A stretch of 64,000 bases of DNA from a virus (lineage: Duplodnaviria > Caudoviricetes): IMG/VR virus record IMGVR_UViG_3300032216_000646, positions 1 to 64,000 of that record, one strand, 5' to 3'. Under the pieces are notes generated by a model. It had not been told where the DNA came from and ran no database searches. It was given only the letters and a program-made list of their open reading frames with translations. The translations under genes and the position numbers were made by a program. Positions 26,870 through 55,527 of this stretch are shown here, in pieces; the stretch's first letter is position 1, and every line of letters starts with the position of its first letter.

Positions 26870-27241
26870 TTAGGCTTTTGGTGCTTCTTCGTCGTCGTCG
26901 AGGTCATCCTCGTCGTCGAGTTCATCTAGGTCACCAAAATCACTTAGGTCTAGCGTGTCAGAAGCCGCAGTTCCAAGGGCATCCTTGATGTCCTTGTTGT
27001 CTCCAGCCTGTTTTGCAACAGCGGCACGGAAGCCCTTTTCGATGTCTTCATCAGAAATCATGGCGTCCCAAGCAAGTTGGACACCAAAGAAGATGATGAT
27101 TGACGAGAAAACAGTTGCTACACCAATGAAGCCACCTGCAATCCATCCGACAGATGGTCCGCCAACGGCAGCACCTGGGATGAAGGCAAACATGACTACA
27201 CCGATAGAGCGAACGATGATTTGCTTTAGTTTATTCAGCAT
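26870..27241 (-). CDS. Putative holin
   Basis: Two TM segments and acidic tail next to lysin. Confidence 0.55.
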   Translation of the reverse strand: MLNKLKQIIVRSIGVVMFAFIPGAAVGGPSVGWIAGGFIGVATVFSSIIIFFGVQLAWDAMISDEDIEKGFRAAVAKQAGDNKDIKDALGTAASDTLDLSDFGDLDELDDEDDLDDDEEAPKA

Positions 27242-32559: not shown

Positions 32560-32563
32560 TTTG

Positions 32564-40605: not shown

Positions 40606-41845
40606 CCTCTCTCTCTCTCCCTCTCTCTAGCCAAAACGACCCTTTTGGCTCATTTGCCGCACCCTAACCCTTTGGCTACTGCCTCCAGTAGATACCCTCA
40701 ACCATGTCTCCGCTCTGGGGGTGACCTGCGCACGGCTTCGACCGAAGGTGGGGGGGTCGGCGGATGGGCTGTCGGATGGCTGACGGACGATGGGCGAGTG
40801 CGAATCCTAGTGGTCGGCTGACCACCTGACAAGTAGTGAGGGGGGAATCGTTATACAACCGTGACTTTGGCTACTGCATCCGTCAGATTGGCGGTCGTGA
40901 AACCGCTTCCAAAGTATTAGCCACCACCCTCCACTGTTATCAGGTGTGAACCCAGTGTTTACGAGGGTGTCAGGTGGCACGAGGCTCGTAGGCGGGCTTT
41001 CACCATGTAGGTGGTGTGATTGGACGTTTTAGGGGGGTCAGACCCTCCTAGGGGCATCCTGTGGCGTTTTAGAGGGGGTGGCTGGTCAGCCAGTTGGAGG
41101 CATGTATAACAATCGTATAACGATGCCATTTACCTATTGACAGGACAGCCAACTTATGGTAGCGACCCCAAAAGTCACAGTTTGATAACAATCTCTCCCT
41201 CTCTCTTGACTTATCTCTCTCTATGTGCATCTAACCCTCTACCTGAACTTGAATGTTCAGGGGGGGTGACCCCCCCTGTGACCCCCCTATAACGATTTGG
41301 TAACGCCTATTGTGCGACAGGCGGTTTTATGGTATTTCGCACGTGTGCGCATGCGCCTGCGCTCGCACACCCAGATAAAACTGACCAAAACAATCGTTAC
41401 CAAAACGTTACCATTTGCCTCTGTCGGAATGTCCTACGGATGTGCAAGACTGGGGGGGTCGGCAACCCGCACCCACACGCACGTGGTCGGAGGCGCTGGC
41501 AGACCCCCCGTGCGGGCGGGTCGCAGGTGAGTGGATTCGCCTGCGATGCCACCCCCGCACCTACCGCAAGGTGACCGCCTCCCCGCAAGGGCTAGGGTCG
41601 GGGGTCGAGGCTCACGAACCGCCACTGACCGTGATAACTCCATAGTGACTACGAAACACACATACAGGATTCCGACACCAGCCACGAAGTAGGCGCATCA
41701 TGCGCCGATTCCAGTTGCAACAAGGTTCAGCCTCTCCATCGACAGGACGATGGCGTGGCTGGTGTCGACCCTCCTGTCTCTGACCGCTTATCGGACACCA
41801 GCGCTCCCCCCGCTGGTGTCCGTTGAGTTGCCAGAGGCAACTCGA

Positions 41846-41861
41846 TGTTTCACGTGAAACA
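41846..41861. promoter_or_regulatory. parS centromere-like site
   Basis: Exact TGTTTCACGTGAAACA palindrome. Confidence 0.85.
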
Positions 41862-41907
41862 TTGCTCAACCTGCTCCATCAACCCAAGAACGTGAGTGTG
41901 ATAACCC

Positions 41908-43254
41908 ATGACATACGCAACCATCATCAAGTCGGCACACAGTGCCTCACTGCCACGAGAGACCGTGGTAATCGCAACGCCATCAGGCGTCCGTGCATTC
42001 ACCCGCACCAACAACGGTGCGAGGGGTGCATCCAACAAGTGGTCGGTCGGCTCACCAGCCAACGCCGACCTCGAACTGGTCTACGGTCAGCCAGTGTCTC
42101 TGGCACTGACTGCCACTGACCTTGCCGAACTGGACTCTGCTCCATCGCACACTGGCTACCCTGCCAACATGCTCCAGCGTCTAGGTCGTGCCATCCGCAC
42201 AGAGGTCGCACTGACCTCGACCAAACTGGTCGACCAGTTGGCAACCGTCTGGCATCTAGCCGAAACGGACGCCGACTCACTGGGTCAATACGTCAAGGGT
42301 CAGACAGTGGCATCCGTGCCGACCATGTCTGCTCCGACCGTGGTTGCCTCCGTGGTGACTGCTCCGAACGTGCCAGTTGCATCGGCATCCGTCAGCCAGT
42401 CCGTCAGCGGTTCAGCGCCAGTCGCATCGAACGCATTGCGCATCCCGCAACTGACAGAGCCAGAACTTGCGGGCTACATTGACCGTGTGTTCGGCAACAA
42501 GAAACGCACTGGTGTCGAACTGCTCGACCACGCTCGCAAGGTCGGATTCAACGTCCGCATCGAGGGTCACGCAGGCACTGGCAAGACCACGTTCACCCGC
42601 TACTATGCGGGCATGCGAGGTCTCATTCACGTTGCTATCCCATGCTCCCCGCAGACCGACTCACTGGACGTGCAGGGTGGCTGGGTGCGTGACTCGTTAG
42701 GTGGCTGGAGATTCCAACTCTCTCCATTCGCAGAGGCGATTCAGCAACCGTCAGTGATTCTGCTCAACGAGGCGAACCGCATGCCATCCAAGGGTCAAAA
42801 CATGTTCTTGCAGGTTCTGCAGGAGCGCCGACTGACCTTGTCGACCTACGACAACAGCGTCATTGAGGTTCACCCTGACTGCCTAATCATTGCCGACCTG
42901 AACGCTGGTCGGCAATACGTAAGCACGAACGCACTTGACCCTGCATTCGTTGACCGATTCAAGTTGCCAATCGTGTTCGGTTACGACCGTGACATCGAGG
43001 AGAAACTGGTCAAGTCCAAGACCCTGCTCGACTTCGCATGGAACGTGCGCAGTCAGCCACAGGTCTACAGAGACACCCCTGTCTCTGTCCGCATGTTGAC
43101 TGCATTCGAGGCGAACGCCATCGGGTTGCAGGACATCAGCATCGCCATCGAGGTGTTCGCAAACGCATTCACCAACCCAATCGAGCGTGACAGCATCCGC
43201 ACCGCTCTTGAGGCGGAGGCATTCCGCATTGAAACCGACCTAGGCATTGCCTAG
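41908..43254 (+). CDS. MoxR/CbbQ/CobS-type AAA+ ATPase
   Basis: GHAGTGKT, ILLNEANR, ALDPAFVDRF and SVR motifs. Confidence 0.9.
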   Translation: MTYATIIKSAHSASLPRETVVIATPSGVRAFTRTNNGARGASNKWSVGSPANADLELVYGQPVSLALTATDLAELDSAPSHTGYPANMLQRLGRAIRTEVALTSTKLVDQLATVWHLAETDADSLGQYVKGQTVASVPTMSAPTVVASVVTAPNVPVASASVSQSVSGSAPVASNALRIPQLTEPELAGYIDRVFGNKKRTGVELLDHARKVGFNVRIEGHAGTGKTTFTRYYAGMRGLIHVAIPCSPQTDSLDVQGGWVRDSLGGWRFQLSPFAEAIQQPSVILLNEANRMPSKGQNMFLQVLQERRLTLSTYDNSVIEVHPDCLIIADLNAGRQYVSTNALDPAFVDRFKLPIVFGYDRDIEEKLVKSKTLLDFAWNVRSQPQVYRDTPVSVRMLTAFEANAIGLQDISIAIEVFANAFTNPIERDSIRTALEAEAFRIETDLGIA

Positions 43255-43276
43255 GTCACGAGGAGAAACGATAACC

Positions 43277-45316
43277 ATGAACGAACTAATCATCCGTGAG
43301 AGCGTCCGTGACGCTCAATCCGAATACGCACAGCGTTGGGCATCGGTCGTTGCGAAGTTCGCAACTGCACTGACTGGTCAGCGCATCGACTGCTCACTCT
43401 CTGCAGAGACCATCGCACCAGCGTGGTCAAGTGAGTCGAGCATCTGGCTATCAGAGCCAACCTTGCCTGACCTCCAGACCACACACGGTGTGTTGGTTGC
43501 CAAGGGTCTGGCACTGCACGAACTGGGTCACATCCTGTTCACCCCTCGCAACGCAACCCAGTGGAGACGCACCGTCAACGCAGAGGGTCTAGGCGAGGCG
43601 ATGAACATCCTTGAGGACATGCGACTTGAGTCATTGCTGGTCGCACGTCACCGTAGCAGTGTCTCACCATGGTTGTCGGCGCTTATCCTGCACTACCTGC
43701 TGGACGATGCCAAGACCATCCCGCTTGCATTCCCTTTGATTCATGGGCGCAAGTTCTTGCCACTGGCAGTCCGTCAGGACGTCCGTGACGCCTACGAACA
43801 CCAGCACATCGTGCCTGACCTCGTGCGCATCATTGACGCCTACCGCAAGGTAGTTCTGCCTCGTGACACTGACCTGTCTCTCGACCTCATTCGTGAGTTC
43901 AAGCAGGTTCTTGACTCTGTCAAGCCGACTGGCTCTGGCACTGGCAACGGTGGCACTGGCGAGGGCGAGGGTTCAACCAGCCAGCCACCGCAGGGTGGAT
44001 GCGGAGTGCCTAACCCGAACCACCCGACTGGTCGACCAGAGTCCTACGACTCTGACCCTGACCACGCACCTCTGTCCAACAAGGAGCAGGAGCAGTTGAC
44101 TGACCGCATGGACGAGACCACAGAGGGTGGCGAGACTGACGAGTCACCTGCCAAGGACAAGGACGAGTCCGCAACAAACAACCAGCCAGCCGATGCAGAT
44201 GATGCTGACGCCGATGGTGACGATGCGGATTCTGACGGAGGCGATTCATCCGACAGTGACTCCGACAGTGACGCCGATGACGATTCTGATTCAGATTCAG
44301 ATTCGACCGATGGCGGTTGCACACTAGGTGGCTCGACCGATGGTGACTCCGATGGCGATGCTGACGGTGACGCCGATGGCGATGCTGACGGTGACAACGG
44401 TCAGCCAACCGACCAGCCAACCGACAAGGGTGGCAAGGGTGCAGGTCAGGACGATGGCTCACAGCCAGCGCCTACCAGCCTGCAGGACGCACTGGACGCC
44501 ATTGCCTCGACCCTGTCTGACGCCATTAGTCAGGTGCAGGAGCAGGTAGGTCTGTCACCTGACCTCCAGTCAGTTGACAACGTGTTCGCACAGCCTGCCG
44601 ACTACAACGAGGTCAAGATGGATGACCCGAAACTGGGTCACGCATCCATCACCATGGCGGAGGAGTTGGAGCGCCTACGTGCCGAACACGAGCCTGCATG
44701 GGAGCGTGAGACCCGCACTGGACGCCTCAACGTTGGACGCCTAGTCAACAACGAGGACACCGACCTACCATTCGACCGCTGGAACGATGGTCAGGACGAT
44801 GTCACCGCAGTCGAGGCAGTTATCATCCTCGACAACAGCGGGTCGATGGCTGGCGAACGTGCCACCAACGCCTACCGTTCGATGTTCGCTCTCAAGAGTG
44901 CGCTCGACATGCTGGGCGATGCACGTTGCACCGTGTTGACATTCAACTACCGTGCGCACCTGCTCTATGGTGCGGACGAGGTTGCAGGCTCAACCATCCG
45001 TGACGCAGGCGCATCAGGTGGCACGAACGCACACGATGCCATCGCCTATGCGACCAACGTCCTTGCCAAGTCAGAACAGCCAATCAAGTTGTTCTTTGCC
45101 ATCACCGATGGTGACTGGTCGGACGCCAACCGTTCGGATGAACTAATCGGCAAGTTGCGAGACGCTGGTGTCCTCACCGCCATCGCACAGGTCGGTGGCG
45201 GTTCAACCAACGACCACGGATGCGAGGTCTACAGCGATGTCAACAACACCGCCGACCTCCTCGTCCTAGGTCGCAAACTGGTCAACCTCGCAGTTGACCG
45301 CAACCTCGCTCGCTAG
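43277..45316 (+). CDS. HExxH + acidic linker + VWA protein (CobT-like)
   Basis: LHELGH, NILEDMRLE, DNSGS MIDAS, GGT and ITDG motifs. Confidence 0.9.
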   Translation: MNELIIRESVRDAQSEYAQRWASVVAKFATALTGQRIDCSLSAETIAPAWSSESSIWLSEPTLPDLQTTHGVLVAKGLALHELGHILFTPRNATQWRRTVNAEGLGEAMNILEDMRLESLLVARHRSSVSPWLSALILHYLLDDAKTIPLAFPLIHGRKFLPLAVRQDVRDAYEHQHIVPDLVRIIDAYRKVVLPRDTDLSLDLIREFKQVLDSVKPTGSGTGNGGTGEGEGSTSQPPQGGCGVPNPNHPTGRPESYDSDPDHAPLSNKEQEQLTDRMDETTEGGETDESPAKDKDESATNNQPADADDADADGDDADSDGGDSSDSDSDSDADDDSDSDSDSTDGGCTLGGSTDGDSDGDADGDADGDADGDNGQPTDQPTDKGGKGAGQDDGSQPAPTSLQDALDAIASTLSDAISQVQEQVGLSPDLQSVDNVFAQPADYNEVKMDDPKLGHASITMAEELERLRAEHEPAWERETRTGRLNVGRLVNNEDTDLPFDRWNDGQDDVTAVEAVIILDNSGSMAGERATNAYRSMFALKSALDMLGDARCTVLTFNYRAHLLYGADEVAGSTIRDAGASGGTNAHDAIAYATNVLAKSEQPIKLFFAITDGDWSDANRSDELIGKLRDAGVLTAIAQVGGGSTNDHGCEVYSDVNNTADLLVLGRKLVNLAVDRNLAR

Positions 45317-45338
45317 TCGAGCGGGGTTGCTCCCAACG

Positions 45339-45382
45339 ACTGGCTGGCATCGGGCTTATCACACTCACCGATGCCAGCCAGT
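45339..45382 (+). terminator. 15-bp perfect hairpin after the VWA gene
   Basis: ACTGGCTGGCATCGG/CCGATGCCAGCCAGT. Confidence 0.6.
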
Positions 45383-45497
45383 TCTCACATCCGTCACATC
45401 ATCCGTTAGACCTGTCTCATCCTTCGTTCAGAACTTTCTCTGGCAAGGGCAACCCGCAACAAACAAATCCATCAACGCTAAAGGAGCGTGGTAACCC

Positions 45498-46178
45498 ATG
45501 ACAATCAACCATCGACCAGCAGGCTCGCCTGCCTCTAACCAATACGGACAGTTCACCGTCCGCTACGCATCACCAGCGCAACAGCGATTCATCGCCAAAC
45601 TGCTGGACGAACGTGACCACACGCTGGGCGCACTTGACCCAGCGACCGTGAACGTTCAGAACGCCTCCAGCATCATCGACCAGTTGCTGGCATTCCCTAT
45701 CCGTGCCGACAAGGTGGTCTACGCCTCTGACAAACAGCGAGCGTTCATCACCTCGCTCCGTGAGTCCAAGGTCAACGGTGGCATCATCGTGGACGAGGCG
45801 CTCGCCAAGTTCGGTGTGACCCTCGACCAGATAACCTCCACGCAGGCACGTAACCTCATTGACCGCCTGCTGGTGGCTCAATCCATCCCCAAGACCGTCA
45901 GGGTCGAGGTGGGCGCTTACATGCACAAGGGCGTGGTCTACAGCGTCCGCAGAGGCACACAGTCGGGCAACCTCAACGCATTCCAGTGGAATGGTGACGC
46001 ATGGGTCTACGCTGGCGCAGTCAAATACGCCATCGAGCCATCGGAGCGCCTAAGCCTCATGGATGCGATGAACTTCGGAGCAGGCACAGGCGTCTGTGTC
46101 CACTGCGGTCGAACCCTGACCGACCCTGACAGCGTTCGATTCGGCATCGGCTCAACCTGTCGCAAGAAATACAACTAG
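45498..46178 (+). CDS. DUF6011-type Zn-finger protein
   Basis: CVHCGRTLTDPDS...GIGSTC. Confidence 0.8.
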   Translation: MTINHRPAGSPASNQYGQFTVRYASPAQQRFIAKLLDERDHTLGALDPATVNVQNASSIIDQLLAFPIRADKVVYASDKQRAFITSLRESKVNGGIIVDEALAKFGVTLDQITSTQARNLIDRLLVAQSIPKTVRVEVGAYMHKGVVYSVRRGTQSGNLNAFQWNGDAWVYAGAVKYAIEPSERLSLMDAMNFGAGTGVCVHCGRTLTDPDSVRFGIGSTCRKKYN

Positions 46179-46306
46179 TCATACACGTGTCCGTCCGTAA
46201 GTCCATCCGCCAGTTTTTGGATACCCCGGTGAAAGCCAGGTCGTACCAATCCCTGACGGATGGACTCGGACGTTCATCGTCCGTCAACCTATCCATTGGA
46301 GCAAAC

Positions 46307-46549
46307 ATGAACCGTGAAAAAAATCAAGTCTCTCGTCCGCCTTTTATCCTTAGAGCCATCCGTCAGCCAATCCGATTAGCACTCGTGGTCGGGTTCTGCT
46401 ACCTCGTGGTTGGATTCATCAACATTGAAATCTGGCTCGTCAACCAAAGTCCGTTCATAAACGGTGGTGACCTACTTGCTTGCATTCTGGCAGTGGTCGC
46501 AGTTAGAGTATTAGTCCGCATCATCCCCGACACCAAGAAAGTGAAGTGA
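46307..46549 (+). CDS. Small membrane protein
   Basis: GGAG RBS; two TM segments. Confidence 0.6.
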   Translation: MNREKNQVSRPPFILRAIRQPIRLALVVGFCYLVVGFINIEIWLVNQSPFINGGDLLACILAVVAVRVLVRIIPDTKKVK

Positions 46550-46554
46550 TACCC

Positions 46555-47253
46555 ATGCAAAGCAAGGACATTACATCCAAGCCACTCGACACAGAGTGGG
46601 CAATCATCAAGTGGAATGCCACCGTCCGCAAAGACGTCAAAGCCTCTGGTCTCGTTCACTGGGAGTCTTTGGAAAAGGTCACACTGGTCAGCACCGACCG
46701 CTACGAGGTCGACAAGACCAAGCGCTCCTATGACCCAGACGATGCTCTGTTCGTCCGTAAAGCAGACCCAGTCAAGGGTTCATTCGGCTACCTAATCAAG
46801 GGCGAGGGTGACCCTGACAGTAATGACCCGACCAAGCCTGTCTATCGAGTCGTGCCTGCCAGTGACTTCATCAGTCCGTGGGCAGACCAAGCCACCCACG
46901 TGGAGGAGCAACGCAACGAGCAACAGCGCATCATCAAAGAGCAGGCAGAGGCACGTGTTCGTCAGCAAATCATCAGCGAGGAGAATGACCGCAGGCAAAG
47001 GATAGCCAGAGAGGTTGCTCTCGACCGTGCAGTCAAAGCCAACGAGACTGCCAAAGCATTCATGCTCAAGCACATCCCTGCAGACATGGTGGAGGACATG
47101 GTGGACTTCAACTTCTACTCCGATGTCACTTACAAACCGTCAGTCGATGGCATTCACCTCGATTACACGCCAAACATCAACGGTGTAATCAACATGCGAG
47201 CAGAGGTCTGGCAGACGTTCATGCAAGTGTTCATGGACTTGCAGAATGACTAG
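46555..47253 (+). CDS. Hypothetical protein
   Basis: Conserved GTGATACCC-ATG leader. Confidence 0.7.
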   Translation: MQSKDITSKPLDTEWAIIKWNATVRKDVKASGLVHWESLEKVTLVSTDRYEVDKTKRSYDPDDALFVRKADPVKGSFGYLIKGEGDPDSNDPTKPVYRVVPASDFISPWADQATHVEEQRNEQQRIIKEQAEARVRQQIISEENDRRQRIAREVALDRAVKANETAKAFMLKHIPADMVEDMVDFNFYSDVTYKPSVDGIHLDYTPNINGVINMRAEVWQTFMQVFMDLQND

Positions 47254-47397
47254 CCTCAAAGAATACGGACGTCACGGATACGTGGCGTCCGTGTTCGTCT
47301 TATCCGTAACAACATCCGTAACAGCGTCCAAACATCCAAACAGCGTTGTAGCCGTTTCGGTGTTTGGCAATCCAACAAGAAAGAAAAGGTGATACCC

Positions 47398-47529
47398 ATG
47401 CGATTAGAAGTAACCGCTAAAGAAAGATTCTGGTTCATGATGCGATACATCATGCCAAAACGTGCCATGTCAGAACTAAGCAAGCCGAACGGTGTGTTCG
47501 AGCGTTTCATGAACGGAGAGTGTCAGTAA
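47398..47529 (+). CDS. Hypothetical peptide (43 aa)
   Basis: Conserved leader; MRLEVTAKERFW... Confidence 0.6.
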   Translation: MRLEVTAKERFWFMMRYIMPKRAMSELSKPNGVFERFMNGECQ

Positions 47530-47759
47530 TGACCATTCACATTGACCTCTCCAATCTTGGAGACCCAGACGAACCATTCAACGATGAAGTCATGCAAGCG
47601 TTAGGCAAGAGCCTCACCCTATGGGTGAACGGTCATGCACACTTGCTCGCATCCATCAACCCATCCGTCACCGTGTCCGTTGACGAACCCGAAGATGTCC
47701 CCACGGGAAACGCCGTTGGGTCAGAACAACAAGAAAGAAAAGGTGATACCCATGAGTGA
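47529..47759 (+). CDS. Hypothetical protein
   Basis: TAATG coupling. Confidence 0.55.
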   Translation: MTIHIDLSNLGDPDEPFNDEVMQALGKSLTLWVNGHAHLLASINPSVTVSVDEPEDVPTGNAVGSEQQERKGDTHE

Positions 47760-47907
47760 AAACTGGAAATCAAACTGTGACAACTGTGGCGAACGTCCGC
47801 ACACTCACGGAGCAAATGGAGTCGATGGCACTCAAGTCATGCTCTGCGATGCCTGTGTTGCAACTCTGCAAGACAAAGGTGAACTGCCAAACGTGGAGGT
47901 GGAGTGA
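47752..47907 (+). CDS. Small Zn-finger protein
   Basis: Conserved leader; CDNC...CDAC. Confidence 0.6.
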   Translation: MSENWKSNCDNCGERPHTHGANGVDGTQVMLCDACVATLQDKGELPNVEVE

Positions 47908-48215
47908 TGAACGATTCACCACTAAAGAAATGTCCAGTCTGCATCCGTGCCTACCGTGGCATGGGCGCACTGTCACGGAGAGACAACCAGACCGAGGTCT
48001 GCTCTGACTGTGGTCAGCGTGAGGCGCTGGAGGCATTCGTAGGACTGTCCGCAACAAACAATCCTGCCGACCCTGCCACCACCACCTGCAAGCACTGCGG
48101 TGAGACCGTCCGTCACGATGGCATCGGCGCATGGGTTGACGAGACCGATGGTGATGGATGCCTGCAAATCACCAAGTTCAATCAGGTTCACGAACCAGTA
48201 TTGGCAGGTGCATGA
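47904..48215 (+). CDS. Cys-rich protein
   Basis: CPVC...ALSRRDN...CSDCG..EA; CKHC. Confidence 0.65.
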   Translation: MMNDSPLKKCPVCIRAYRGMGALSRRDNQTEVCSDCGQREALEAFVGLSATNNPADPATTTCKHCGETVRHDGIGAWVDETDGDGCLQITKFNQVHEPVLAGA

Positions 48216-48499
48216 TGCAAGTTCGTTTCAGTTACTCACCAAAGCACGTCAAGTTCGTCTATGACGCTGACACCGCTCGTGTCCGTGCCACGTTCATCCA
48301 CGACAGCGCAGAAGTCAACTCAAAGTGGCTTACCGCTGACGAGGAGGCGAGCATAGGCGAGGTCTACGAGGACATCTACACCTACAAGGAGTATTCCATC
48401 AACCTCAAAGAGTTGCTAGAGACCGACTTCATGTTCGACTCGTGCGACAGTGAACCCTGCAACTTTGAAATCATGCTAGACGAACTATCCGCTAGGTAG
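48212..48499 (+). CDS. Hypothetical protein
   Basis: ATGA overlap with upstream stop. Confidence 0.6.
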   Translation: MMQVRFSYSPKHVKFVYDADTARVRATFIHDSAEVNSKWLTADEEASIGEVYEDIYTYKEYSINLKELLETDFMFDSCDSEPCNFEIMLDELSAR

Positions 48500-48612
48500 T
48501 CCGTTAGGGCTTATGGACGCCTTCATCCGTGGGGGCGTCCGTAACCCTCAACCTTCAACCCTGAGTTGAAAGATTCAAACTCAACGACATCAAGAAAGAA
48601 AAGGTGATACCC

Positions 48613-49077
48613 ATGTCGATTACTCAACTAGACCTCAAAGGGCTGACCATGGAACAGGTGCAGAAAGCCATCGACCAAGCAGTCCTACAAGAAAACAGTC
48701 GGCAGTTCATGGTCAAATACCGTGCCGAACAAAAAGAAAAGAACAAAGCCAAAGCGCAAGAGCGTGGCAGACGCACACGCATCATCAACACCATGGTCAA
48801 ACTAGGTGTGCCAGTAAACCCCATCAAAACGAACTGGAACGACTCCAAGCGTGGTGAAAAGATGAACCTGTCTACCCAGCCATCCGCCAAAGAGGAAAGC
48901 AAGGGCAGTTACCAACTGTCTATGGATGTCAAACACGCCATAGAGTTTCACAAATACCTAGACATCCTGCGCAACACCCTCGTGTTCAAAATCACAGAGG
49001 TGCAGGTCGGCAACTACATGGGCGGTTCAGAAAACCCCATCTACACCTACTACATCCGATTCATGGGAGACAAATAA
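48613..49077 (+). CDS. Hypothetical protein
   Basis: Conserved leader. Confidence 0.65.
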   Translation: MSITQLDLKGLTMEQVQKAIDQAVLQENSRQFMVKYRAEQKEKNKAKAQERGRRTRIINTMVKLGVPVNPIKTNWNDSKRGEKMNLSTQPSAKEESKGSYQLSMDVKHAIEFHKYLDILRNTLVFKITEVQVGNYMGGSENPIYTYYIRFMGDK

Positions 49078-49376
49078 TGATTAGTCAAAGCATCGACGTG
49101 CCACTCACACAAAGAGAACTCAAAAGCCTCACCGTGTTGACCTCCTCATTCATCGAGGACGTCACTGGCATCATCAAGAACGTCAAACAAAACGGTGGTG
49201 AGGTTGACATTGACTTCATCAAAGCCTCCATCGACATGGCAGTTCTACTTGCAAAGTTGAACGGTTACCGTGAGGGCGCAATCGGGCTAGAAATAGCAGA
49301 ACTGGATGCCATGTTCAGAATGCCATCCGTCAACCCATCCGTAGGCTCGTCCGAAGATGACGACGAAGGGCGCTGA
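49077..49376 (+). CDS. Hypothetical protein
   Basis: TAATG coupling. Confidence 0.6.
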   Translation: MISQSIDVPLTQRELKSLTVLTSSFIEDVTGIIKNVKQNGGEVDIDFIKASIDMAVLLAKLNGYREGAIGLEIAELDAMFRMPSVNPSVGSSEDDDEGR

Positions 49377-49377
49377 G

Positions 49378-49665
49378 ATGACGATTCAAACTCAACGCAT
49401 GTGTTACAAATGTGAACTCGATGTTGCAATCAACCGACTCGATACAGAACACCCATCTTGCAAAGGGTGTTTCGATGGGTCACACGTATTCGGTTGCGAC
49501 TTCTGCGAAAACGGTCTAGCCACAGAGCAGGTCGATTACTCCACTGGGCAACGTGAGTGGTGGTGTTCGACTTGTGTGGTAGAACATGGTATAAATGACA
49601 TCCAGTCAAAAATGCGCTACGTAAATGCGGGCGCATGGTTCATCGAAAACCTAGGAGGGCGATAA
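49378..49665 (+). CDS. Cys-rich protein (four CxxC)
   Basis: ORF track; start re-set to ATG 49378. Confidence 0.6.
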   Translation: MTIQTQRMCYKCELDVAINRLDTEHPSCKGCFDGSHVFGCDFCENGLATEQVDYSTGQREWWCSTCVVEHGINDIQSKMRYVNAGAWFIENLGGR

Positions 49666-49667
49666 AC

Positions 49668-49838
49668 ATGGAAAAGCAATACGAAATCAAATGGACACTA
49701 GAAAAGTGGTTCAAGGTCACCATCACCGCTGAAAGCGAGGAGCAGGCACGTGAGATGTTCTGGGCTGGCGAACACGGTGAACCAACTCAATACGGCGCAG
49801 AAATCCAAGAGGGTGTAGACGTAGAGGAGGTCAAATAA
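49668..49838 (+). CDS. Small acidic protein
   Basis: GGAGG RBS; V.I.AESEEQA.E pattern. Confidence 0.6.
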   Translation: MEKQYEIKWTLEKWFKVTITAESEEQAREMFWAGEHGEPTQYGAEIQEGVDVEEVK

Positions 49839-50173
49839 TGGCTAAGGTCAGAGACGTGCGCAAAGCACTCAAAGCATCAGACCCAGACTCTCACATTGCA
49901 ATCTGGTTCGTCACCAAGCGTGAGATGGAGCGTGAGATGGAAGTCAGCATGACTGACGAAGTCTGGCGTCTAGCCACCACCAAGTGGCTCAAAGCCAACT
50001 ACGCCACGCTCACGGAGAGCATCAAACAAATGACATGGGATGCCGAATACGACACGGAGGGCGAGGAAGTCCACGCTGTGTCCGTAGACGCATCCGTAGA
50101 CCCATCCGAAGATGAGAAAAACGGCGCTTCAGCCGTGTCCCCAAAGATTCAAAAACCAAAGAAAGTGAAGTGA
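49838..50173 (+). CDS. Hypothetical protein
   Basis: GGAGG RBS; TAATG coupling. Confidence 0.6.
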   Translation: MAKVRDVRKALKASDPDSHIAIWFVTKREMEREMEVSMTDEVWRLATTKWLKANYATLTESIKQMTWDAEYDTEGEEVHAVSVDASVDPSEDEKNGASAVSPKIQKPKKVK

Positions 50174-50178
50174 TAACC

Positions 50179-50508
50179 ATGCCAACAGTTACAACTCCTT
50201 ACAACAAAACCGCCGAAGTCGAGATAGGCACACCAGCCACCATCGGCATCGGCAGTGACTCATACCCTGCAACCATTGTCAGTTTCTTACTGTTCAAGTC
50301 AGGGGCAAAGCAAGGACAAGTCCGTAGCATCCTCGTTCAGTGGGACAACCACAAGTTCAACCCAGAGACGAGAGAGGACGAGTATTCACGCAACCCCGAT
50401 GGCAAAATCATGGTGTTCACACAGAACAAGCGTGGACGCTGGCACAGCAACAACTCCTACGGTCTGGGCATCGGTCACAGACGTTACTACCAAGACCCAT
50501 CGTTCTAG
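50179..50508 (+). CDS. Hypothetical phage protein
   Basis: Conserved leader; SDSYPATIV...G.R.YYQDPSF. Confidence 0.7.
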   Translation: MPTVTTPYNKTAEVEIGTPATIGIGSDSYPATIVSFLLFKSGAKQGQVRSILVQWDNHKFNPETREDEYSRNPDGKIMVFTQNKRGRWHSNNSYGLGIGHRRYYQDPSF

Positions 50509-50592
50509 TCCGTAAGGATGTCCGTTGGTGGTAACCCGCCGCCAAAAAAATAAAAATCGGCACGCAAGCCGAGAAAGAAAAAGGTGATAACC

Positions 50593-50814
50593 ATGACACG
50601 CATCAAACTCATTCGTGTTCAAGACGCACACACCCGCCTAAAAGCAGGTGACACTGGAACTATCGTTGGAGAGTCGTTCGACCAAATCGGTTACGAACGT
50701 CTCGTCCGTCTCGATGTCCAATGGGATAGCGGGTCAACTCTCGCTATCTACCCACACCTTGACGAGTTCGAGGTAATCACAGAACCATCCGTCGGCTCGT
50801 CCGTAAGCCAATAA
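50593..50814 (+). CDS. DUF4314-like SH3-type protein
   Basis: GDTGTIV...VQWDSGSTL....D.F. Confidence 0.6.
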   Translation: MTRIKLIRVQDAHTRLKAGDTGTIVGESFDQIGYERLVRLDVQWDSGSTLAIYPHLDEFEVITEPSVGSSVSQ

Positions 50815-50817
50815 CCC

Positions 50818-50833
50818 GTGAAAGCGCTTTCAC
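50818..50833. promoter_or_regulatory. Perfect 16-bp palindrome, LacI/cre-like operator
   Basis: GTGAAAGCGCTTTCAC just before AGGAG RBS. Confidence 0.55.
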
Positions 50834-50849
50834 AGATTTCAGGAGCATC

Positions 50850-51080
50850 ATGAGCATCAAAAAAAGATTCAAAGAACTAGGCGCAGTCGTAGAGATTCCA
50901 GACTTACATGTCTGGGTCTCTGACGATGGCATGTGGGGAGTAGGTGAACTTGTAGTTGTAAACGCCACGCAGTGGTCTATCCAACAGTTTGAGAAGTTCT
51001 CTGACTTGCATCCCACAGAACGCTGGAACACAGCCATAGAATGGGCATCCGCAACAAACAAGGAGGGCGATAAGCCATGA
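50850..51080 (+). CDS. Hypothetical protein
   Basis: AGGAG RBS. Confidence 0.6.
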   Translation: MSIKKRFKELGAVVEIPDLHVWVSDDGMWGVGELVVVNATQWSIQQFEKFSDLHPTERWNTAIEWASATNKEGDKP

Positions 51081-51268
51081 CACAAGAACAAAAAAGAATG
51101 CTTGACTTTCTCATTTACGAGAACGAGGATGGAACATGGACAGGTGAAGTAAAGAACATCCTGCTATCTCCGTTCGCACCATCGCTATTCGTAGCAACAG
51201 CATCAACCAAACTAGAAGTCACCGAACAGGTGGCACGATTCGCATTGGAGGGCGATACCCATGAGTAA
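51077..51268 (+). CDS. Hypothetical protein, possibly HicB-like fold
   Basis: YENEDGTWTGEV...ATAST..EV pattern. Confidence 0.5.
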   Translation: MTQEQKRMLDFLIYENEDGTWTGEVKNILLSPFAPSLFVATASTKLEVTEQVARFALEGDTHE

Positions 51269-51626
51269 CATCGAACAGGTCATACATGACCGCAAACTAA
51301 CAGAGCAAGGACGTCACGAGGGCATGCAGTGGATGCGTGACCACTTGATTGACAAACTGAACCACGACTTGGAGAGCAACGAGTGCGACTGCCAGTGCGA
51401 TGCACTCAAAGACGTAGTGGATTACCTGACAGGCGAGTTGCCTGAATCAACTCACCAGCATGTCTGGCAAACTGACAACCTATCGGACACCTACGAAACC
51501 ATCTGTGGTGTCTGCCAAGCAGTAAAGGAGGATGCGCTACCCCTATCGAACGATGTTGACGACCAGTGGTGTGACACCTGCGGGTCAGAACTGACTCACC
51601 CATGTGGATGCGAGGCGAACGACTAA
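51261..51626 (+). CDS. Cys-rich hypothetical protein
   Basis: GGAGG RBS. Confidence 0.6.
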   Translation: MSNIEQVIHDRKLTEQGRHEGMQWMRDHLIDKLNHDLESNECDCQCDALKDVVDYLTGELPESTHQHVWQTDNLSDTYETICGVCQAVKEDALPLSNDVDDQWCDTCGSELTHPCGCEAND

Positions 51627-51802
51627 TGGGTTATGGCATCTCATTCCTAAGTCGCACACAGTTGCGCCAAATAATCGACACCACCACTAACCCAGTAGTC
51701 AAAGCCTACGCAGAGGCAACTCTGACTGTCTATGACCTACACCTTGACCTTGAAAAGAGTCTCGTAGAGGCTATTGGCGAGGCTCACGAGGCTCAAGAAT
51801 GA
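51626..51802 (+). CDS. Hypothetical protein
   Basis: TAATG coupling. Confidence 0.55.
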   Translation: MGYGISFLSRTQLRQIIDTTTNPVVKAYAEATLTVYDLHLDLEKSLVEAIGEAHEAQE

Positions 51803-52008
51803 CGGGCGCACAGCAAGCGTTCAAGGCGGGCGTCCGTGAGGGCGTCCGTCAAGAGCGTGAACGCATTTTCAAATCAAATCTCTGGAACATCTTGCGTGAG
51901 CAAGGTTGGTCAGAGTTCTCAATGTCACAACTATGTGCTGAACTAGAGTTACTCAAAGAAGTAGAGGAGAACGAGGATGCAGACATTCTTACCACTAGCA
52001 ACGAGTAA
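51799..52008 (+). CDS. Hypothetical protein
   Basis: ATGA coupling. Confidence 0.55.
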   Translation: MTGAQQAFKAGVREGVRQERERIFKSNLWNILREQGWSEFSMSQLCAELELLKEVEENEDADILTTSNE

Positions 52009-52465
52009 CTTCGTTGACATCGCAAAGACGCTTGACAACAAGCGTCTCAATAAGCAGGCTCTGGAGGGTTGGCAAATCATGCTGACCCTCCTAGAACTTG
52101 ACCCAGAGGGTAACCATCGCACACCAAAAGGCTGGGTAAACCATCCAGCAGTCAAGATGTGGCGTGGCTCTGAGACCCTGCTTATGGGTTACGTAGTCGC
52201 TATGACCCAAGAATGGGTGAACCGTGGCTATAAAACCACGATTGGTGTCAAAGCCATGAAAACACTCATTCGTGGCATCGAACTCAAACGAGCCTCTACA
52301 AAGCCATCAGAGCCTCTCTGGATGGCTGACAAAGACAAGTTTGAGCAGATTGCCTCAAGCCACCGCAAGGCTCTCCTAGCCAAAGATTACGACTGGTATA
52401 GCCAGTTTGGTTGGGCAGAGGACACTGGCACAGCACCAACCACCTACGAATACATCTGGGAGTAA
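51977..52465 (+). CDS. MSMEG_6728 / pyrimidine-dimer glycosylase-like protein
   Basis: MQTFLP...LDNKRLNKQ..E, GW.NHPAV.MW and SH...LL.KD motifs. Confidence 0.85.
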   Translation: MQTFLPLATSNFVDIAKTLDNKRLNKQALEGWQIMLTLLELDPEGNHRTPKGWVNHPAVKMWRGSETLLMGYVVAMTQEWVNRGYKTTIGVKAMKTLIRGIELKRASTKPSEPLWMADKDKFEQIASSHRKALLAKDYDWYSQFGWAEDTGTAPTTYEYIWE

Positions 52466-52467
52466 AG

Positions 52468-52704
52468 ATGAAACTAAAACATGCAGTAGGAGACACCATT
52501 CGCAGTCTCCGTCAAGAAAGAAACATGACCCTGCGCATTCTGTCCAGCAGGTCTCATGTAGCACTAGGTCACATCTCTGACGTTGAACGAGGCAACAAAG
52601 GGGCAAGCCACGAACTGCTAGAGGCTCTTGCTTTAGGGCTAGACATCTCCACCACCGACCTCATTGGAGAAATCTACGAGTATCTAAAGGAGAACAATGG
52701 CTAA
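52468..52704 (+). CDS. XRE HTH regulator, ClgR-like
   Basis: GD.IR..R.....TLR......V.LG.IS.VERG.K..S.ELL pattern. Confidence 0.8.
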   Translation: MKLKHAVGDTIRSLRQERNMTLRILSSRSHVALGHISDVERGNKGASHELLEALALGLDISTTDLIGEIYEYLKENNG

Positions 52705-52873
52705 GAGCAAAGCACGTCACCGTGCAGAATGGCGTCCGTTGGACTATCCATTACAGTCATACATCCGCATGTATCAAAATCGCTGGTGGCATTTCCAAAA
52801 GCCAGCACTCAAAAGAAAGGTCAGTCTGTGTCTAAAGCACGTATCGGAACTGATAAAGAAACTAAGCAAATAA
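52697..52873 (+). CDS. Small basic protein (58 aa)
   Basis: AAGGAG RBS; MAKSKARHRAEW... Confidence 0.55.
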   Translation: MAKSKARHRAEWRPLDYPLQSYIRMYQNRWWHFQKPALKRKVSLCLKHVSELIKKLSK

Positions 52874-53064
52874 TCAAAGAGGCTAAAAGCCAAGGTTGGC
52901 AAATCGTCATGACCAATGGCAACCACCTCAAATGGATAGCACCCAACGGTAAAGTAGTGTTCTCCGCTTTGACAGGGTCAGACCGCCGAGGTATTCTAAA
53001 CCTCAAGAGCCAACTGCGCATCGCTGGGTTTATCGAAATCAAAAAGCAAGGTAAAAGCAAATGA
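52828..53064 (+). CDS. HicA-like toxin-fold protein
   Basis: GW.....GNHLKW..P.G...T.SD.R...NL...LR.AG. Confidence 0.7.
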   Translation: MSKARIGTDKETKQIIKEAKSQGWQIVMTNGNHLKWIAPNGKVVFSALTGSDRRGILNLKSQLRIAGFIEIKKQGKSK

Positions 53065-53345
53065 ATGAATCGTGGGTAGGGGCAATCTGCTCCGAAACTG
53101 ACCCTGAACTTTTCTTCCCAGAGAAGTTGAGCAACACTACACAAATCAGGCAAGCAAAGCGCCTCTGCGCCACGTGTCCACTCACCGCCCAATGCCTAGA
53201 GGTGGCTATGAAAAAGCCATACGAGGGCATCTGGGGGGGAACTCTACCCAGTGAGAGAGCAAGCATGAAAAGACATCCTGAACTAATCCAAAAACACCTA
53301 AAAGAACTGAGGGCAAATGCTAGAACTATTGAGCAGGCTGACTAA
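53061..53345 (+). CDS. whiB: WhiB-family transcription factor
   Basis: C...DPELFFP, AK.LC..CP...QC and GIWGG motifs. Confidence 0.95.
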   Translation: MNESWVGAICSETDPELFFPEKLSNTTQIRQAKRLCATCPLTAQCLEVAMKKPYEGIWGGTLPSERASMKRHPELIQKHLKELRANARTIEQAD

Positions 53346-53548
53346 TGGAACAGCCAGATTTATTGAACAAAGACGACGTGGCAAAACTCGCAGGGTTCAA
53401 GTCACGCACGACCGTGAGGCTTTATCAAAAGCGAGGCATCCTTCCCAAGCCAGACGTTTACGTCAAGAGCAAGCCGATGTGGAACAGGTCAACTATCGAA
53501 AGATGGAACTGTGACCGCAACAGCATCGAACTGGTAGAGATTCCGTAA
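53345..53548 (+). CDS. AlpA/excisionase-like HTH protein
   Basis: DVA...G....TV......G..P.PD......W....I..W. Confidence 0.75.
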   Translation: MEQPDLLNKDDVAKLAGFKSRTTVRLYQKRGILPKPDVYVKSKPMWNRSTIERWNCDRNSIELVEIP

Positions 53549-53617
53549 GACTATCCGTAAGCCCACTTCGCTGCCAAAAAAATGTCAGTGGGGTGTGCTA
53601 AGAAATCGAGGGCAATA

Positions 53618-54748
53618 ATGATTCAGCAAAAACTAAATGATTACATTCAAAGTTGGCTACCAAAAGCCGACCTACTACCCATCACCAAAAAGAACTACGA
53701 GTCTGTCCTACGCATCCACGTCCTGCCACGCATGGGCGAGAGAGTCATAGCAGACATCCGTAGAGCCGATGTCCGTCAACTGCTGGACGAACTACGTGAC
53801 GTAGGCATCTCCAGTTCTATCCGCTCCCAAGCCAAAGCCTCCCTAGGCTCTGCACTGCAGGCACTGGTAGACCGTGACGAACTAGAGTCCAACCCGACGC
53901 ACAAGATTCGCATCAAGAAGTTAGACAGCCAAGACCTACGCAACGTCCTAGACCCAGAGGACTTCAAGACCATCCGTCAGAACCTCCGTAATGACGTCGC
54001 CGCACTTTTTGCAGACTTCCTTGTTCTTTCGGGTTGCCGATTCGGAGAGGCATCCGAACTAAGACTCAAAGATGCCAACTTCAAAACCAACGAAATCTAC
54101 ATTCAAAGACGAGTCAGTGACCTAGGTGGAAACCATAACAATGGTTCAAGATTCAGGGTTATCGAGGCTACAAAGTCAGGTCGTAGCCGTGCTGTCGTAG
54201 TCACAAAGCCACTTATGGACGCAATCAAAGCCCATTCACAAGCCCACGGACTAGCACAAAACGACCTATTGTTCCCTGTGAACTTGTTTGCTAAAGACGA
54301 TACCGTGGAAAGCATGTCACGAGACACGGACACCGCAAAGACATTCGTCAAGAACAAAAGGTTATACACCCACGGAACGCAATACGCTTACGTGCATGGT
54401 CTTTGCAGGTGTGAGCAATGCCGAGATGCGATGCGAAAGTATCGAGCATCACAACGCCTACCAAAAGTCAACCAGCGTCCTGCCACCAACACGACAGGAC
54501 ACTTACCTCGTGACACATGGAGACTAATCTGGCTAGAGGCAATCGGTAAGTCCAATGTGGAATGGAGTCCACGCACCCACGACCTTCGTCATGCCAACGC
54601 TACGCTGTTACTAAAAAATGGCGTGGATGTGAACGAAGTCAAGGAGCGTCTAGGACACTCATCCATCAAGACGACAGAACGATACCTACATCGTCTGCGT
54701 CACCAACGGTCAAAAGCAGCGGAAGCAGTGGCTGACTTTTTGGAGTGA
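53618..54748 (+). CDS. int: Tyrosine integrase/recombinase
   Basis: SGCRFGE, TKS, HDLRH, LGHS and Y catalytic residues intact. Confidence 0.92.
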   Translation: MIQQKLNDYIQSWLPKADLLPITKKNYESVLRIHVLPRMGERVIADIRRADVRQLLDELRDVGISSSIRSQAKASLGSALQALVDRDELESNPTHKIRIKKLDSQDLRNVLDPEDFKTIRQNLRNDVAALFADFLVLSGCRFGEASELRLKDANFKTNEIYIQRRVSDLGGNHNNGSRFRVIEATKSGRSRAVVVTKPLMDAIKAHSQAHGLAQNDLLFPVNLFAKDDTVESMSRDTDTAKTFVKNKRLYTHGTQYAYVHGLCRCEQCRDAMRKYRASQRLPKVNQRPATNTTGHLPRDTWRLIWLEAIGKSNVEWSPRTHDLRHANATLLLKNGVDVNEVKERLGHSSIKTTERYLHRLRHQRSKAAEAVADFLE

Positions 54749-55287
54749 TACAAATGAATACAAAGATAACCAAACTGATAAGCACCAGCATCTTGACACT
54801 AATCCTGTCAGGATGTGTCACCCCGCAAGAGGTGACTCCAGTAATAAAAGCCGAACCAGCAGTTTACTCAAAGCCCACTAGCATCAACCCAATAATGGTT
54901 CATGCTCAAGCAATGAAAGTAAAAGCCATTCGGAAGCAAATCGTGAAGCAAGCCATCTCAGGATTGGGTGTTCCCTATGTCTATAGTGGAATGTCTAGGT
55001 CTGGGTGGGACTGCTCAGGATTTACTGCTTATGTGTATGGTAAGTTCGGGATACAACTAGAGCATTCAGCAACAAAGCAAGCGCATTCTGCAAAGCCCAA
55101 CCGCAAGCCACAGGCTGGCGACTTGGTAGCATTCAGCAGAGGCGATGGCTATTGGTATTACCACGTAGGTATCTACATAGGTAATGGCAAAGTTGTCAAT
55201 GCAAACAGTTACTACGGACGAACAGTTGTAGAACCCATCACCAACTACAAAGGTGACAAGATTACATACATCAACGTAATCAAGTAG
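54745..55287 (+). CDS. NlpC/P60 cell-wall hydrolase, lipoprotein-like
   Basis: LSGC lipobox; GVPY, DCSG, GDLV and HVGIY motifs. Confidence 0.9.
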   Translation: MIQMNTKITKLISTSILTLILSGCVTPQEVTPVIKAEPAVYSKPTSINPIMVHAQAMKVKAIRKQIVKQAISGLGVPYVYSGMSRSGWDCSGFTAYVYGKFGIQLEHSATKQAHSAKPNRKPQAGDLVAFSRGDGYWYYHVGIYIGNGKVVNANSYYGRTVVEPITNYKGDKITYINVIK

Positions 55288-55293
55288 AACAAG

Positions 55294-55331
55294 AAAAGCC
55301 CCTCACTACTTAGGTAGTGGGGGGTTTTTTT
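55294..55331 (+). terminator. Rho-independent terminator ending the plus-strand block
   Basis: GCCCCTCACTAC/GTAGTGGGGGGT stem plus T7. Confidence 0.85.
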
Positions 55332-55451
55332 ATACCCAAATCCGTAAGCCCATCCGCAAGAATCTCCGCCGCAGCGAAGACCTGGCTGTCGTCTTCGCAG
55401 TACTGGACAACCTGACGGACAAATCCATCCGTAAGGGTATCCGTCAATCCA

Positions 55452-55478
55452 CTTTTCGATAACGGGGTTATCGAAAAG
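55452..55478. repeat. Perfect 12-bp inverted repeat
   Basis: CTTTTCGATAAC-GGG-GTTATCGAAAAG. Confidence 0.8.
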
Positions 55479-55527
55479 CGACTTTTTACGAGAAGCCGCT
55501 CCGTAAGAAACGGATAGCCTAACGGAT

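Follow-up and report, generated by a model that had tools for sequence, protein, structure and literature searches.

Tandem 12-bp TCCGT repeats dispersed along an actinobacterial phage genome as predicted sites for a head-to-tail winged-helix protein

The 95.7-kb genome of an uncultured actinobacterial phage (G000), whose host is also uncultured, carries about 35 short arrays in which a TCCGT core is repeated head to tail with a period of 12 bp. These arrays are selected as nucleotide signals and conserved in related phages, and their motif changes from lineage to lineage along with a small phage-encoded winged-helix protein. We give even chances to the reading that they are sites on double-stranded DNA for such a protein, which would assemble head to tail and act on transcription in the manner of stoperators.

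The repeat and its distribution

In the window, the 64,000-nucleotide stretch of this genome that was analysed, the pattern TCCG-N8-TCCG occurs 33 times, whereas 100 dinucleotide shuffles yield a mean of 0.70 (sd 0.87, maximum 4). The whole genome contains 39 matches, 27 on the plus strand and 12 on the minus strand, and all of them fall into a single spike at a distance of 12 in the genome-wide histogram of TCCG-TCCG spacings, where every other distance from 4 to 40 is represented 0 to 5 times. Together, the shuffles and the histogram rule out chance or base composition as the source of the arrays. The greatest density is reached in a plus-strand block of 13.4 kb (41.9-55.3 kb), which holds 20 matches against 0.15 in shuffled sequence. 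An excess at 12-bp spacing over shuffled sequence was the test that the original prediction had set for itself beforehand, and it holds for codon-preserving shuffles as well. When synonymous codons are shuffled within genes, the coding sequences of the block retain 2.95 matches (maximum 7) of the 15 observed, and those outside the block 1.0 (maximum 4) of the 10 observed.

The repeat unit is a 10-bp word, YRTCCGTMRG, followed by two free bases and present in two or three head-to-tail copies. A purine occupies position -1 in 79% of units and a T follows TCCG in 77%; the RTCCGT initially proposed as the unit is shorter than this word. Arrays occur between genes as well as within them, where two reading frames are used, encoding either S-V or I/V-R, while the third frame would give a stop; the repeat is therefore a signal at the nucleotide level. 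An artefact of protein repeats is likewise ruled out by the use of two frames and by the counts above those of synonymous-codon shuffles. A separate 12-bp signal, CGAT/GACGA, comes from an acidic repeat encoded by the VWA gene. All array coordinates in the original prediction are exact matches, but its total of 22 has to be raised to 23, because the plus-strand pair at 44249 had been overlooked; the plus strand has 17 pairs and 3 triples, the minus strand 3 pairs.

The leftmost arrays of the early region lie in non-coding DNA and point left. One of them, to the left of the block, has three units with spacings of 11 and 12 (40761..40787, minus strand; orthologues in L227 at 7357 and L228 at 4767), and the other is a pair (41425..41440, minus strand; L227 8022, L228 4937). 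This non-coding region also contains a parS site, at about 41.5 kb.

Within the block, all 20 pair matches are on the plus strand and point with the genes. The MoxR ATPase gene contains a pair in frame 0 (42388..42403; S-V-S-Q-S-V) that is kept in L227 (9005/9017) and L228 (6393). In the VWA gene, a pair in frame 1 situated 46 nt into the gene (43293..43308; I-R-E-S-V-R) is kept in L227 (9905) and L228 (7329), as is a second pair (43770..43785; L227 10382, L228 7809), and the pair at 44249..44264 is a TCCGACAG variant with a counterpart in L227 (10861). The pair at 45390..45405 ends 93 nt ahead of the start of a DUF6011 gene and has three units in L227 (12015); those at 46194..46209 and 46359..46374 correspond to L227 12824 and 13150/13162. 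Further along, several arrays stand close to gene boundaries. A pair at 47303..47318, succeeded by degenerate TCCA units, is 80 nt ahead of the next start, and the one at 47664..47679 ends 73 nt ahead of the next. The pair at 48488..48503 overlaps the stop codon of the gene 48158-48499 and is followed by an intergenic pair (48526..48541) 72 nt ahead of the next start. Three-unit arrays are located at a gene end (49326..49353; three units in L227, 15000) and 71 nt ahead of a start (50081..50108; three units in L227, 16039). A pair at 50509..50524 begins 1 nt past a stop codon, 69 nt ahead of the next start, and another (50788..50803) marks the end of the DUF4314 gene, 47 nt ahead of the start that comes after it. 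The pair at 51833..51848 lies 34 nt into a gene (L227 17669), that at 53542..53557 provides the stop codon of a 67-aa winged-helix gene, 25 nt ahead of the integrase start, and that at 53973..53988 is within the integrase gene (L227 19815). Intergenic DNA, gene ends and ORF interiors are thus all occupied, as originally described.

The plus-strand block and the minus-strand genes beyond it converge on a pair of terminators, and arrays cluster between them at 55.3-55.5 kb. A three-unit plus-strand array (55341..55368) begins 9 nt past the terminator of the plus block. It is followed by a plus-strand pair (55428..55443), whose equivalent in L238 has the opposite orientation, just left of a central hairpin or palindrome with a 12-bp stem (55452..55478); L238 keeps this stem with a different inner sequence. 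A minus-strand pair (55511..55526) is placed directly past the minus-strand terminator (55559-55532), where L238 has two (12136, 12161). A 200-bp element at 55.4 kb is found beside the tyrosine recombinase.

The expected enrichment of the early region is real, since 1-40 kb holds 4 matches, but the arrays are not confined to it and occur also in RNR, PolA, DnaB and other genes. The backbone genes have 9 further sense-strand arrays, mostly in replication genes at 56-86 kb. In the replication module all eight arrays are in sense orientation, one every 2-6 kb. Its minus-strand sense arrays include a pair in the class II RNR gene (56857..56872; identical in L238, 13503), a pair in a 504-aa gene (59003..59018; L238 15649), and a three-unit array with spacings of 11 and 12 near the end of a 297-aa gene (60164..60190; L238 17235). 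Backbone arrays were created through amino acid replacements, among others in the conserved enzymes RNR and PolA; at the RNR array, Ser is found where relatives conserve Cys. In the late genes the co-orientation is reversed, with a lone sense array (15931..15946, minus strand) and four antisense ones, which is more than chance. The latter include plus-strand arrays at 19879..19894, 26017..26032 and 27146..27161, the last with weaker units. What carries the orientation bias is the block, with 20 of 20 matches in sense, together with the 8 of 8 sense arrays of the replication module.

Conservation and the candidate binder

Arrays are present at orthologous sites in relatives whose MoxR is 81% and 42% identical. 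Compared with L227, 97% of core positions are conserved but only 62% of spacer and 82% of flanking positions, and the cores are, by this comparison, under purifying selection. More distant relatives have no arrays. The phage family, all of whose members are uncultured, is abundant, with more than 550 related contigs. Megablast against GenBank phages yields no relatives, a MoxR protein search of IMG/VR no close relative, and the relatives retrieved by a metagenome scan with a MoxR alignment are all array-less. Among the matches listed for TCCGTNAG-N4-TCCGTNAG in IMG/VR are chance singles and three long tandem repeats of the coding type (L126, L136, L225), with no further array-bearing phage. 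Other periodic words of 10-13 bp were looked for in five complete relatives and none was found.

The leading candidate for the binder is encoded in the block itself. The 67-aa gene at 53345..53548 (plus strand), positioned between a WhiB-like gene and a tyrosine integrase, specifies a winged helix of the AlpA/Xis/MerR/BldC type with matches to phrog_597 and phrog_66. Profile comparison with the PDB returns 8c3t (E 4e-6), MerR, BldC (6ama) and Cox (4lhf). Its AF2 model (pLDDT 83) has the topology H-H-beta-beta-H and resembles RacA, MerR and BldC in Foldseek (TM about 0.6). As modelled, the protein is a single-domain MerR-like winged helix devoid of a dimerisation helix, coiled-coil or effector domain. 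The L227 homologue is 88% identical, and among 215 homologues there are many in which a single chain has 2-7 copies of the domain in tandem. The contig encoding a homologue with two domains (L236) has no informative array.

The association of this protein with the repeat extends beyond G000. In five lineages, the homologous gene has a tandem repeat at or just past its own stop codon, composed of a different word in each (TCCGT, TCCGAC, ATCCA, ATCCAC and CGACATCGAC). The array at 53542 accordingly has equivalents in L227 (19394), L232 (270, TCCGAC) and L233 (2162, ATCCA three times). The recognition helix also differs among the five lineages, and the motif changes with the protein. On this circumstantial link, the 67-aa protein is the most likely binder of the arrays, and of the two types of protein originally put forward, AlpA-like and XRE, the former is the best candidate. 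The XRE HTH protein is the weaker one, because homologues occur in relatives without arrays. Phylogenetic profiling cannot single out the 67-aa protein, since all block proteins are common to the array-bearing genomes.

The WhiB-like gene (53061..53345, plus strand; PF02467, E 6e-18) is directly upstream of the winged-helix gene, and the pair is kept in relatives. The tyrosine integrase (53582..54748, plus strand; PF00589, and PF14659 at residues 18-71) shows no recognisable arm-binding domain, which makes it an unlikely binder. In the case of a recombination directionality factor (excisionase), a small winged-helix gene would be expected beside a tyrosine integrase, with its sites in attP. 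The winged-helix gene adjoins the integrase in G000, L227, L232, L233 and L235; its homologues in L229 and L231 come without an integrase. An attP site was not identified in G000.

A stoperator-like mechanism and its precedents

From these observations we infer that the arrays are bound and that binding affects transcription. Monomers of the winged-helix protein would line up head to tail, one per 12-bp unit, each reading the TCCGT core, so that one site would comprise two or three units. The about 35 arrays of this lineage appear to descend from one local site, located at the 3' end of the winged-helix gene, that multiplied. The bound protein would then act on RNA polymerase in an orientation-dependent manner, either as a roadblock inside and between genes or as a repressor beside gene starts. 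As with stoperators, the outcome would be that early and middle transcription is shut down or gated.

The closest precedent is found in the stoperators of Cluster A phages (L5 gp71-type), which are dozens of asymmetric sites oriented mostly with transcription, located at gene junctions and inside genes, with a motif that drifts between related phages (PMC6550527, PMC9283540). The present case shares the actinobacterial setting, the dispersed, oriented and asymmetric sites at junctions and within genes, and the drift between relatives. Against the 20-30 dispersed sites expected of such a system, the 95.7-kb genome has 39 pair matches in about 35 arrays, and orientation with transcription is seen in the block and the replication module, in contrast to the late genes. 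However, a stoperator is one 13-bp site to which a monomer binds non-cooperatively, whereas the arrays always consist of two or three tandem units spaced 12 bp apart. Also unlike stoperators, they crowd into one 13-kb block and the replication genes and are few and mostly antisense in late genes. Stoperator systems further encode a two-domain immunity repressor of the gp71 type, which when bound blocks elongating RNA polymerase. No gp71-like repressor was identified; in this respect the Pfam and PHROG scans of the block proteins showed only XRE, WhiB and the winged helix.

For the proposed mode of binding, small proteins provide precedents. BldC is a winged helix that binds direct repeats head to tail in variable number (PMC5859096), RdfS, of the same fold, also binds head to tail on direct repeats (PMC11963761), and the actinophage protein D29 Gp36 represses genes downstream of its direct-repeat site (PMC12266134). 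The candidate shares the fold of these proteins and of lambda Xis, consists likewise of one winged-helix domain of about 65 aa, and adjoins a tyrosine integrase. Their sites are few, with repeats about one helical turn apart at a period of 9-11 bp (PMC5859096) or, for Gp36, 20 bp, as opposed to about 35 arrays of two or three direct repeats every 12 bp, many of them embedded in coding sequence through amino acid changes. The antitermination known for AlpA of P. aeruginosa was considered as an analogue and rejected, as that protein is larger, Q-like and binds as a single molecule (PMC9371919).

More specifically, an excisionase- or BldC-type protein might have been turned into a genome-wide cooperative stoperator, its local autoregulatory repeat having spread to about 35 sites with orientation-dependent gating, as a second, independent invention in actinophages. 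We hold this fuller account only tentatively. The 12-bp period, longer than that reported for BldC and Xis-type proteins, counts against the model, as do the presence of the winged-helix gene without dispersed arrays in L229 and L231 and the antisense orientation of 4 of the 5 late-gene arrays. Many arrays, moreover, are deep in long genes, and blocking transcription there permanently would be costly.

Other readings of the arrays

Among the alternatives, the one that fares best, though we regard it as unlikely, is that each array serves as an upstream activator site or a promoter element. A direct-repeat activator of phage or host origin (for example OmpR/SARP-type or WhiB-associated) would recruit RNA polymerase, each array would mark an early or middle promoter, and the hairpin and strong ribosome-binding element downstream of it would form the 5' leader. 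Seven of the 18 block arrays end 30-100 nt ahead of the next start codon where 2.75 are expected (P 0.012), an excess that also speaks for the main reading, and the same succession of array, conserved hairpin and repeated initiation element recurs. Two of the backbone arrays (genome positions 68964 and 80717) are within larger intergenic gaps, and the WhiB gene next to the winged-helix gene would suit such an activator. Yet no conserved -10/-35 element keeps a constant spacing to the arrays, sites of the sigma-70 type show no enrichment, the gap between array and hairpin can be anything from 10 to 30 nt, and roughly half of the arrays are deep in ORFs or directly past terminators.

The initiation element has a counterpart in the SAS of Cluster K mycobacteriophages, which at many small genes is joined to the start codon and preceded immediately by a second element, ESAS (PMC3203893). 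The repeated initiation element of the block is SAS-like, being likewise joined to the start codons of many small genes, and also has a second conserved element upstream; it has no exact match in IMG/VR. ESAS is a 17-bp inverted repeat directly adjoining SAS, whereas the TCCGT arrays are direct repeats that, where they precede starts, end 47-110 nt upstream, many others being unrelated to gene starts.

An RNA element appears improbable. Here an oligomeric RNA-binding protein or nuclease would bind tandem UCCGU on mRNA and decide how transcripts are processed, how stable they are or whether they terminate at the hairpins downstream of the arrays. The sense orientation throughout the block and replication module is compatible with this, several arrays precede hairpins whose pairing is kept despite sequence change, and a HicA-like gene is available in the block (52729-53064). 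HicA homologues, however, are present in relatives without arrays. A function at the DNA level is favoured over one in RNA because arrays lie past both convergent terminators, one array is inverted in L238, antisense arrays exceed chance in the late genes, and the related word of L235 is laid out as palindromes. An Rfam scan found tmRNA alone.

Equally improbable in our view is that a host protein reads the sites, whether a response regulator or a BldC-like factor, and that the phage early genes thereby join a host regulon. Actinobacterial response regulators typically recognise direct repeats spaced at close to one helical turn. Against a host reader, the motif shifts between phage lineages along with the phage winged-helix protein, and closely related phages, presumably infecting the same host types, have no arrays.

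Least of all do we expect polar guides for a DNA-handling machine (KOPS- or Chi-like) that diverge at ~41.5 kb and converge on the 55.4-kb element: orientation does switch exactly at the parS region and at this element, where the densest cluster adjoins the recombinase gene, but it is fully confounded with gene direction, which switches at the same points, and about 40 kb of the long arm is almost empty, with arrays pointing the wrong way. The polar words known to us are, moreover, single octamers and not tandem pairs, and the skew of such words changes over at origin and terminus whichever way the genes run.

Binding by a head-to-tail winged-helix protein would matter for phage regulation. 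Few systems in which one protein controls a whole phage genome from many oriented sites have been established by experiment, the Cluster A stoperators being the chief example. If true, the arrays would represent a mechanistically different version, in which an excisionase-like protein binds tandem repeats cooperatively, head to tail. Since some close relatives have arrays and others have none, a direct comparison is possible, and the case shows unusually clearly that regulatory words can come under selection within conserved enzymes even though amino acids change as a result.

A selected tandem word with a 12-bp period

The tandem arrays are a real, selected and lineage-specific feature of this phage. 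The window, which covers the first 64 kb of the 95,750-bp record (G000), contains 33 matches to TCCG-N8-TCCG versus 0.70 ± 0.87 in shuffles; the whole genome contains 39. The plus-strand gene block at 41.9-55.3 kb holds 20 matches versus 0.15 in shuffles. The predicted excess at 12-bp spacing is the sole spike of the spacing histogram (27+12), other spacings reaching 0-5. Every coordinate listed in the original prediction is an exact match, but the list overlooked a pair at 44249. The unit consensus is Y-R-T-C-C-G-T-M-R-G plus two free bases, and units stand head to tail in two or three copies, occasionally spaced by 11 bp.

Within open reading frames, the word is read in frame 0 (S-V-x-x-S-V) or frame 1 (I/V-R-x-x-I/V-R). 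Frame 2 usually gives a stop, and two genes obtain their stop codons from arrays in this frame. The excess also stands against shuffles of synonymous codons: 15 observed versus 2.95 (maximum 7) for block genes, and 10 versus 1.0 (maximum 4) for genes outside the block. In these backbone genes, arrays are produced by amino acid replacements relative to array-less relatives. For instance, the array at 56857-56872 in the RNR gene (55793-57925, minus strand) encodes S-V-E-V-S-V where three relatives have S-V-(E/D)-V-C-V; the Cys conserved in those three is Ser in G000 and its relative L238, a replacement that creates an array unit. The PolA array encodes S-S-V-G-I-S-V versus S-(S/A)-(I/V)-G-C-(T/S) in relatives. 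Because two frames are used, synonymous-codon shuffles are exceeded and backbone arrays arise via amino acid replacements, the arrays are a nucleotide-level signal.

More than 550 PolA relatives at 70-81% identity are present in IMG/VR, and arrays are common to one narrow lineage. Five complete relatives (90-94 kb) contain neither arrays nor any other periodic word, and their 33-55-kb region is unrelated to G000 or only 33% identical. In a comparison with G001-G005, the whole 33.6-55.5-kb region (window 33606-55300), made up of the plus-strand block and of small modifying-enzyme genes in arrays, is hypervariable among phages that share 60-87% identity in their replication and structural genes. 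Arrays are also absent from relatives whose MoxR is 36-38% identical. In the ENA scaffold L227/L238 (MoxR 81% identical), 21 plus-strand arrays occupy orthologous block positions, and minus-strand arrays lie at the same places in RNR, a 504-aa gene and a 294-aa gene. Identity between G000 and L227 is 97% in TCCGT cores, 62% in spacers and 82% in flanks. A TCCGAC variant occupies orthologous sites in L228 (MoxR 42%) and L232. This conservation shows that the arrays are old within the lineage and under purifying selection.

Among the matches listed, long tandem runs of a 12-bp TTCCGTGAGGGA-like unit also occur in unrelated viral contigs (L136:5453-6056, L126:12959-13214 and L225:3423-3738), with 11 to 46 TCCG-N8-TCCG matches per contig. 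These are probably coding four-residue repeats read on the opposite strand.

Genome layout and array placement

The two ends of the record share a short overlap of 123 bp, which makes the assembly effectively circular. Nearly all genes lie on the minus strand, including structural genes (1-33 kb), tail and baseplate, DnaB, SNF2 helicase, PolA, RecA and class II RNR, as does a tmRNA (32561-32853; Rfam RF00023, 121 bits; tag ATQNAYALAA). The plus strand carries the single block, with 50-57% G+C versus ~47% in the rest of the genome. Its products are a MoxR-like ATPase, a VWA protein, a DUF6011 protein, ~20 small proteins, DenV, XRE, a HicA-like protein, WhiB, a 67-aa winged-helix protein, a tyrosine integrase and an NlpC/P60 peptidase. 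This WhiB, a PolA whose nearest GenBank match is from Streptomyces BRock-like phages (37%) and an Lsr2 gene in one relative point to an actinobacterial host.

A 1.3-kb non-coding region (40610-41900) with C7/G7 runs and CT repeats could be an origin or regulatory hub. Inside it, three TAAC-N7-TAAC pairs (11-bp period) cluster in a 300-bp stretch, at 41107, 41290 and 41396, though the count of such pairs by itself is not above chance across the whole window; similar ATAAC pairs are found in L228. A perfect 16-bp palindrome, TGTTTCACGTGAAACA, sits at 41846-41861, 46 bp upstream of the MoxR start, and is the chromosomal parS consensus.

Seven of the block's 18 arrays stop 30-100 nt short of the next start codon, versus 2.75 expected (P 0.012). 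Given this bias toward gene starts, the arrays may instead have an activator or promoter role. Some of the seven are followed by a small hairpin (47335-47375, 50125-50140, 50557-50572, 50817-50832) and a repeated initiation element. The hairpins, matched in position by one of different sequence in L227, could serve as U-less terminators or belong to 5′ leaders. The element, AAGAAAGAAAAGGTGATACCCATG and variants (46543-46557, 47386-47400, 47740-47754, 48601-48615, 50167-50181, 50581-50595, 51249-51263), is fused to the start codon in at least seven small block genes, three copies being identical across 24 nt. No exact copy of it was found in IMG/VR, and it resembles start-associated sequences of Cluster K mycobacteriophages.

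The co-orientation noted originally is complete in the block, where 20 of 20 matches point with the genes, but the late genes have 1 sense and 4 antisense arrays. In the replication module (55.5-86 kb) all eight arrays are sense, spaced 1-6 kb apart, and both arrays in the non-coding region (40.6-41.9 kb) point left. Orientation could possibly reflect origin-to-terminus polarity instead, which is confounded here with gene direction. Four arrays lie in the 200 bp between two convergent terminators (55.3-55.5 kb), around a central hairpin with a 12-bp stem (55452-55478), and arrays there start 9-10 nt past each terminator U-tract. In L238 this hairpin retains its outer CTTTT/AAAAG arms, while the inner arms are changed yet complementary.

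A candidate reader of the arrays

Among the helix-turn-helix proteins originally proposed as binders, the AlpA-like one ranks best: family matches and homologue context make this 67-aa protein (53345-53548) the best candidate reader. Its PHROG matches are phrog_597 (DNA-binding protein) and phrog_66 (excisionase and transcriptional regulator). The top match for a profile of 60 homologues is the AlpA-family phage regulator 8c3t (E 4e-6), followed by MerR proteins, BldC (6ama), RacA and P2 Cox. AlphaFold predicts (pLDDT 83) a helix-helix-wing-helix domain, structurally closest to RacA, MerR-family DNA-binding domains and BldC. Many of 215 homologues (P0027-P0045, P0080) carry two to seven domain copies per chain, an undescribed-looking architecture that fits a domain reading tandem direct repeats and would do so as a single polypeptide.

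In related phages, the homologues most similar to this protein (54-58% identical) are encoded immediately upstream of tyrosine integrases, each with a tandem repeat at or just past its own stop codon. The word differs by phage: TCCGT in G000 and L227, TCCGAC in L232, three ATCCA copies at 10-11 bp spacing in L233, and ATCCAC sites around a tRNA-like attP in L235. Recognition-helix differences accompany these word differences. In L229, the gene follows WhiB without an integrase and precedes a single CGACATCGAC pair, with no dispersal. This context links the 67-aa protein to the arrays, and the likely history is that a local site, either autoregulatory or close to attP, became multiplied in the lineage of G000. 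Since array-bearing genomes share every block protein, profiling does not discriminate among candidate binders.

Array action and known systems

The arrays appear to act at the DNA rather than the RNA level, because they sit past strong terminators, one is inverted between G000 and L238, antisense arrays are above chance, and L235 has the related word in palindromic form. Head-to-tail binding is known for BldC, which multimerizes on direct repeats (PMC5859096), and for RdfS and lambda Xis, which form filaments (PMC11963761). The small MerR-like actinophage protein D29 Gp36 binds direct repeats that are GC-rich, repressing the genes that lie downstream of its site (PMC12266134). The 12-bp period here is longer than in known relatives such as BldC and Xis-type proteins. 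Cluster A stoperators comprise 20-30 asymmetric sites that point with transcription and stop elongation, each a single site bound by a monomer (PMC6550527). On the best reading, the arrays are a new form, built on tandem repeats, of such stoperator-like control across the genome, probably exercised by an excisionase/BldC-type protein.
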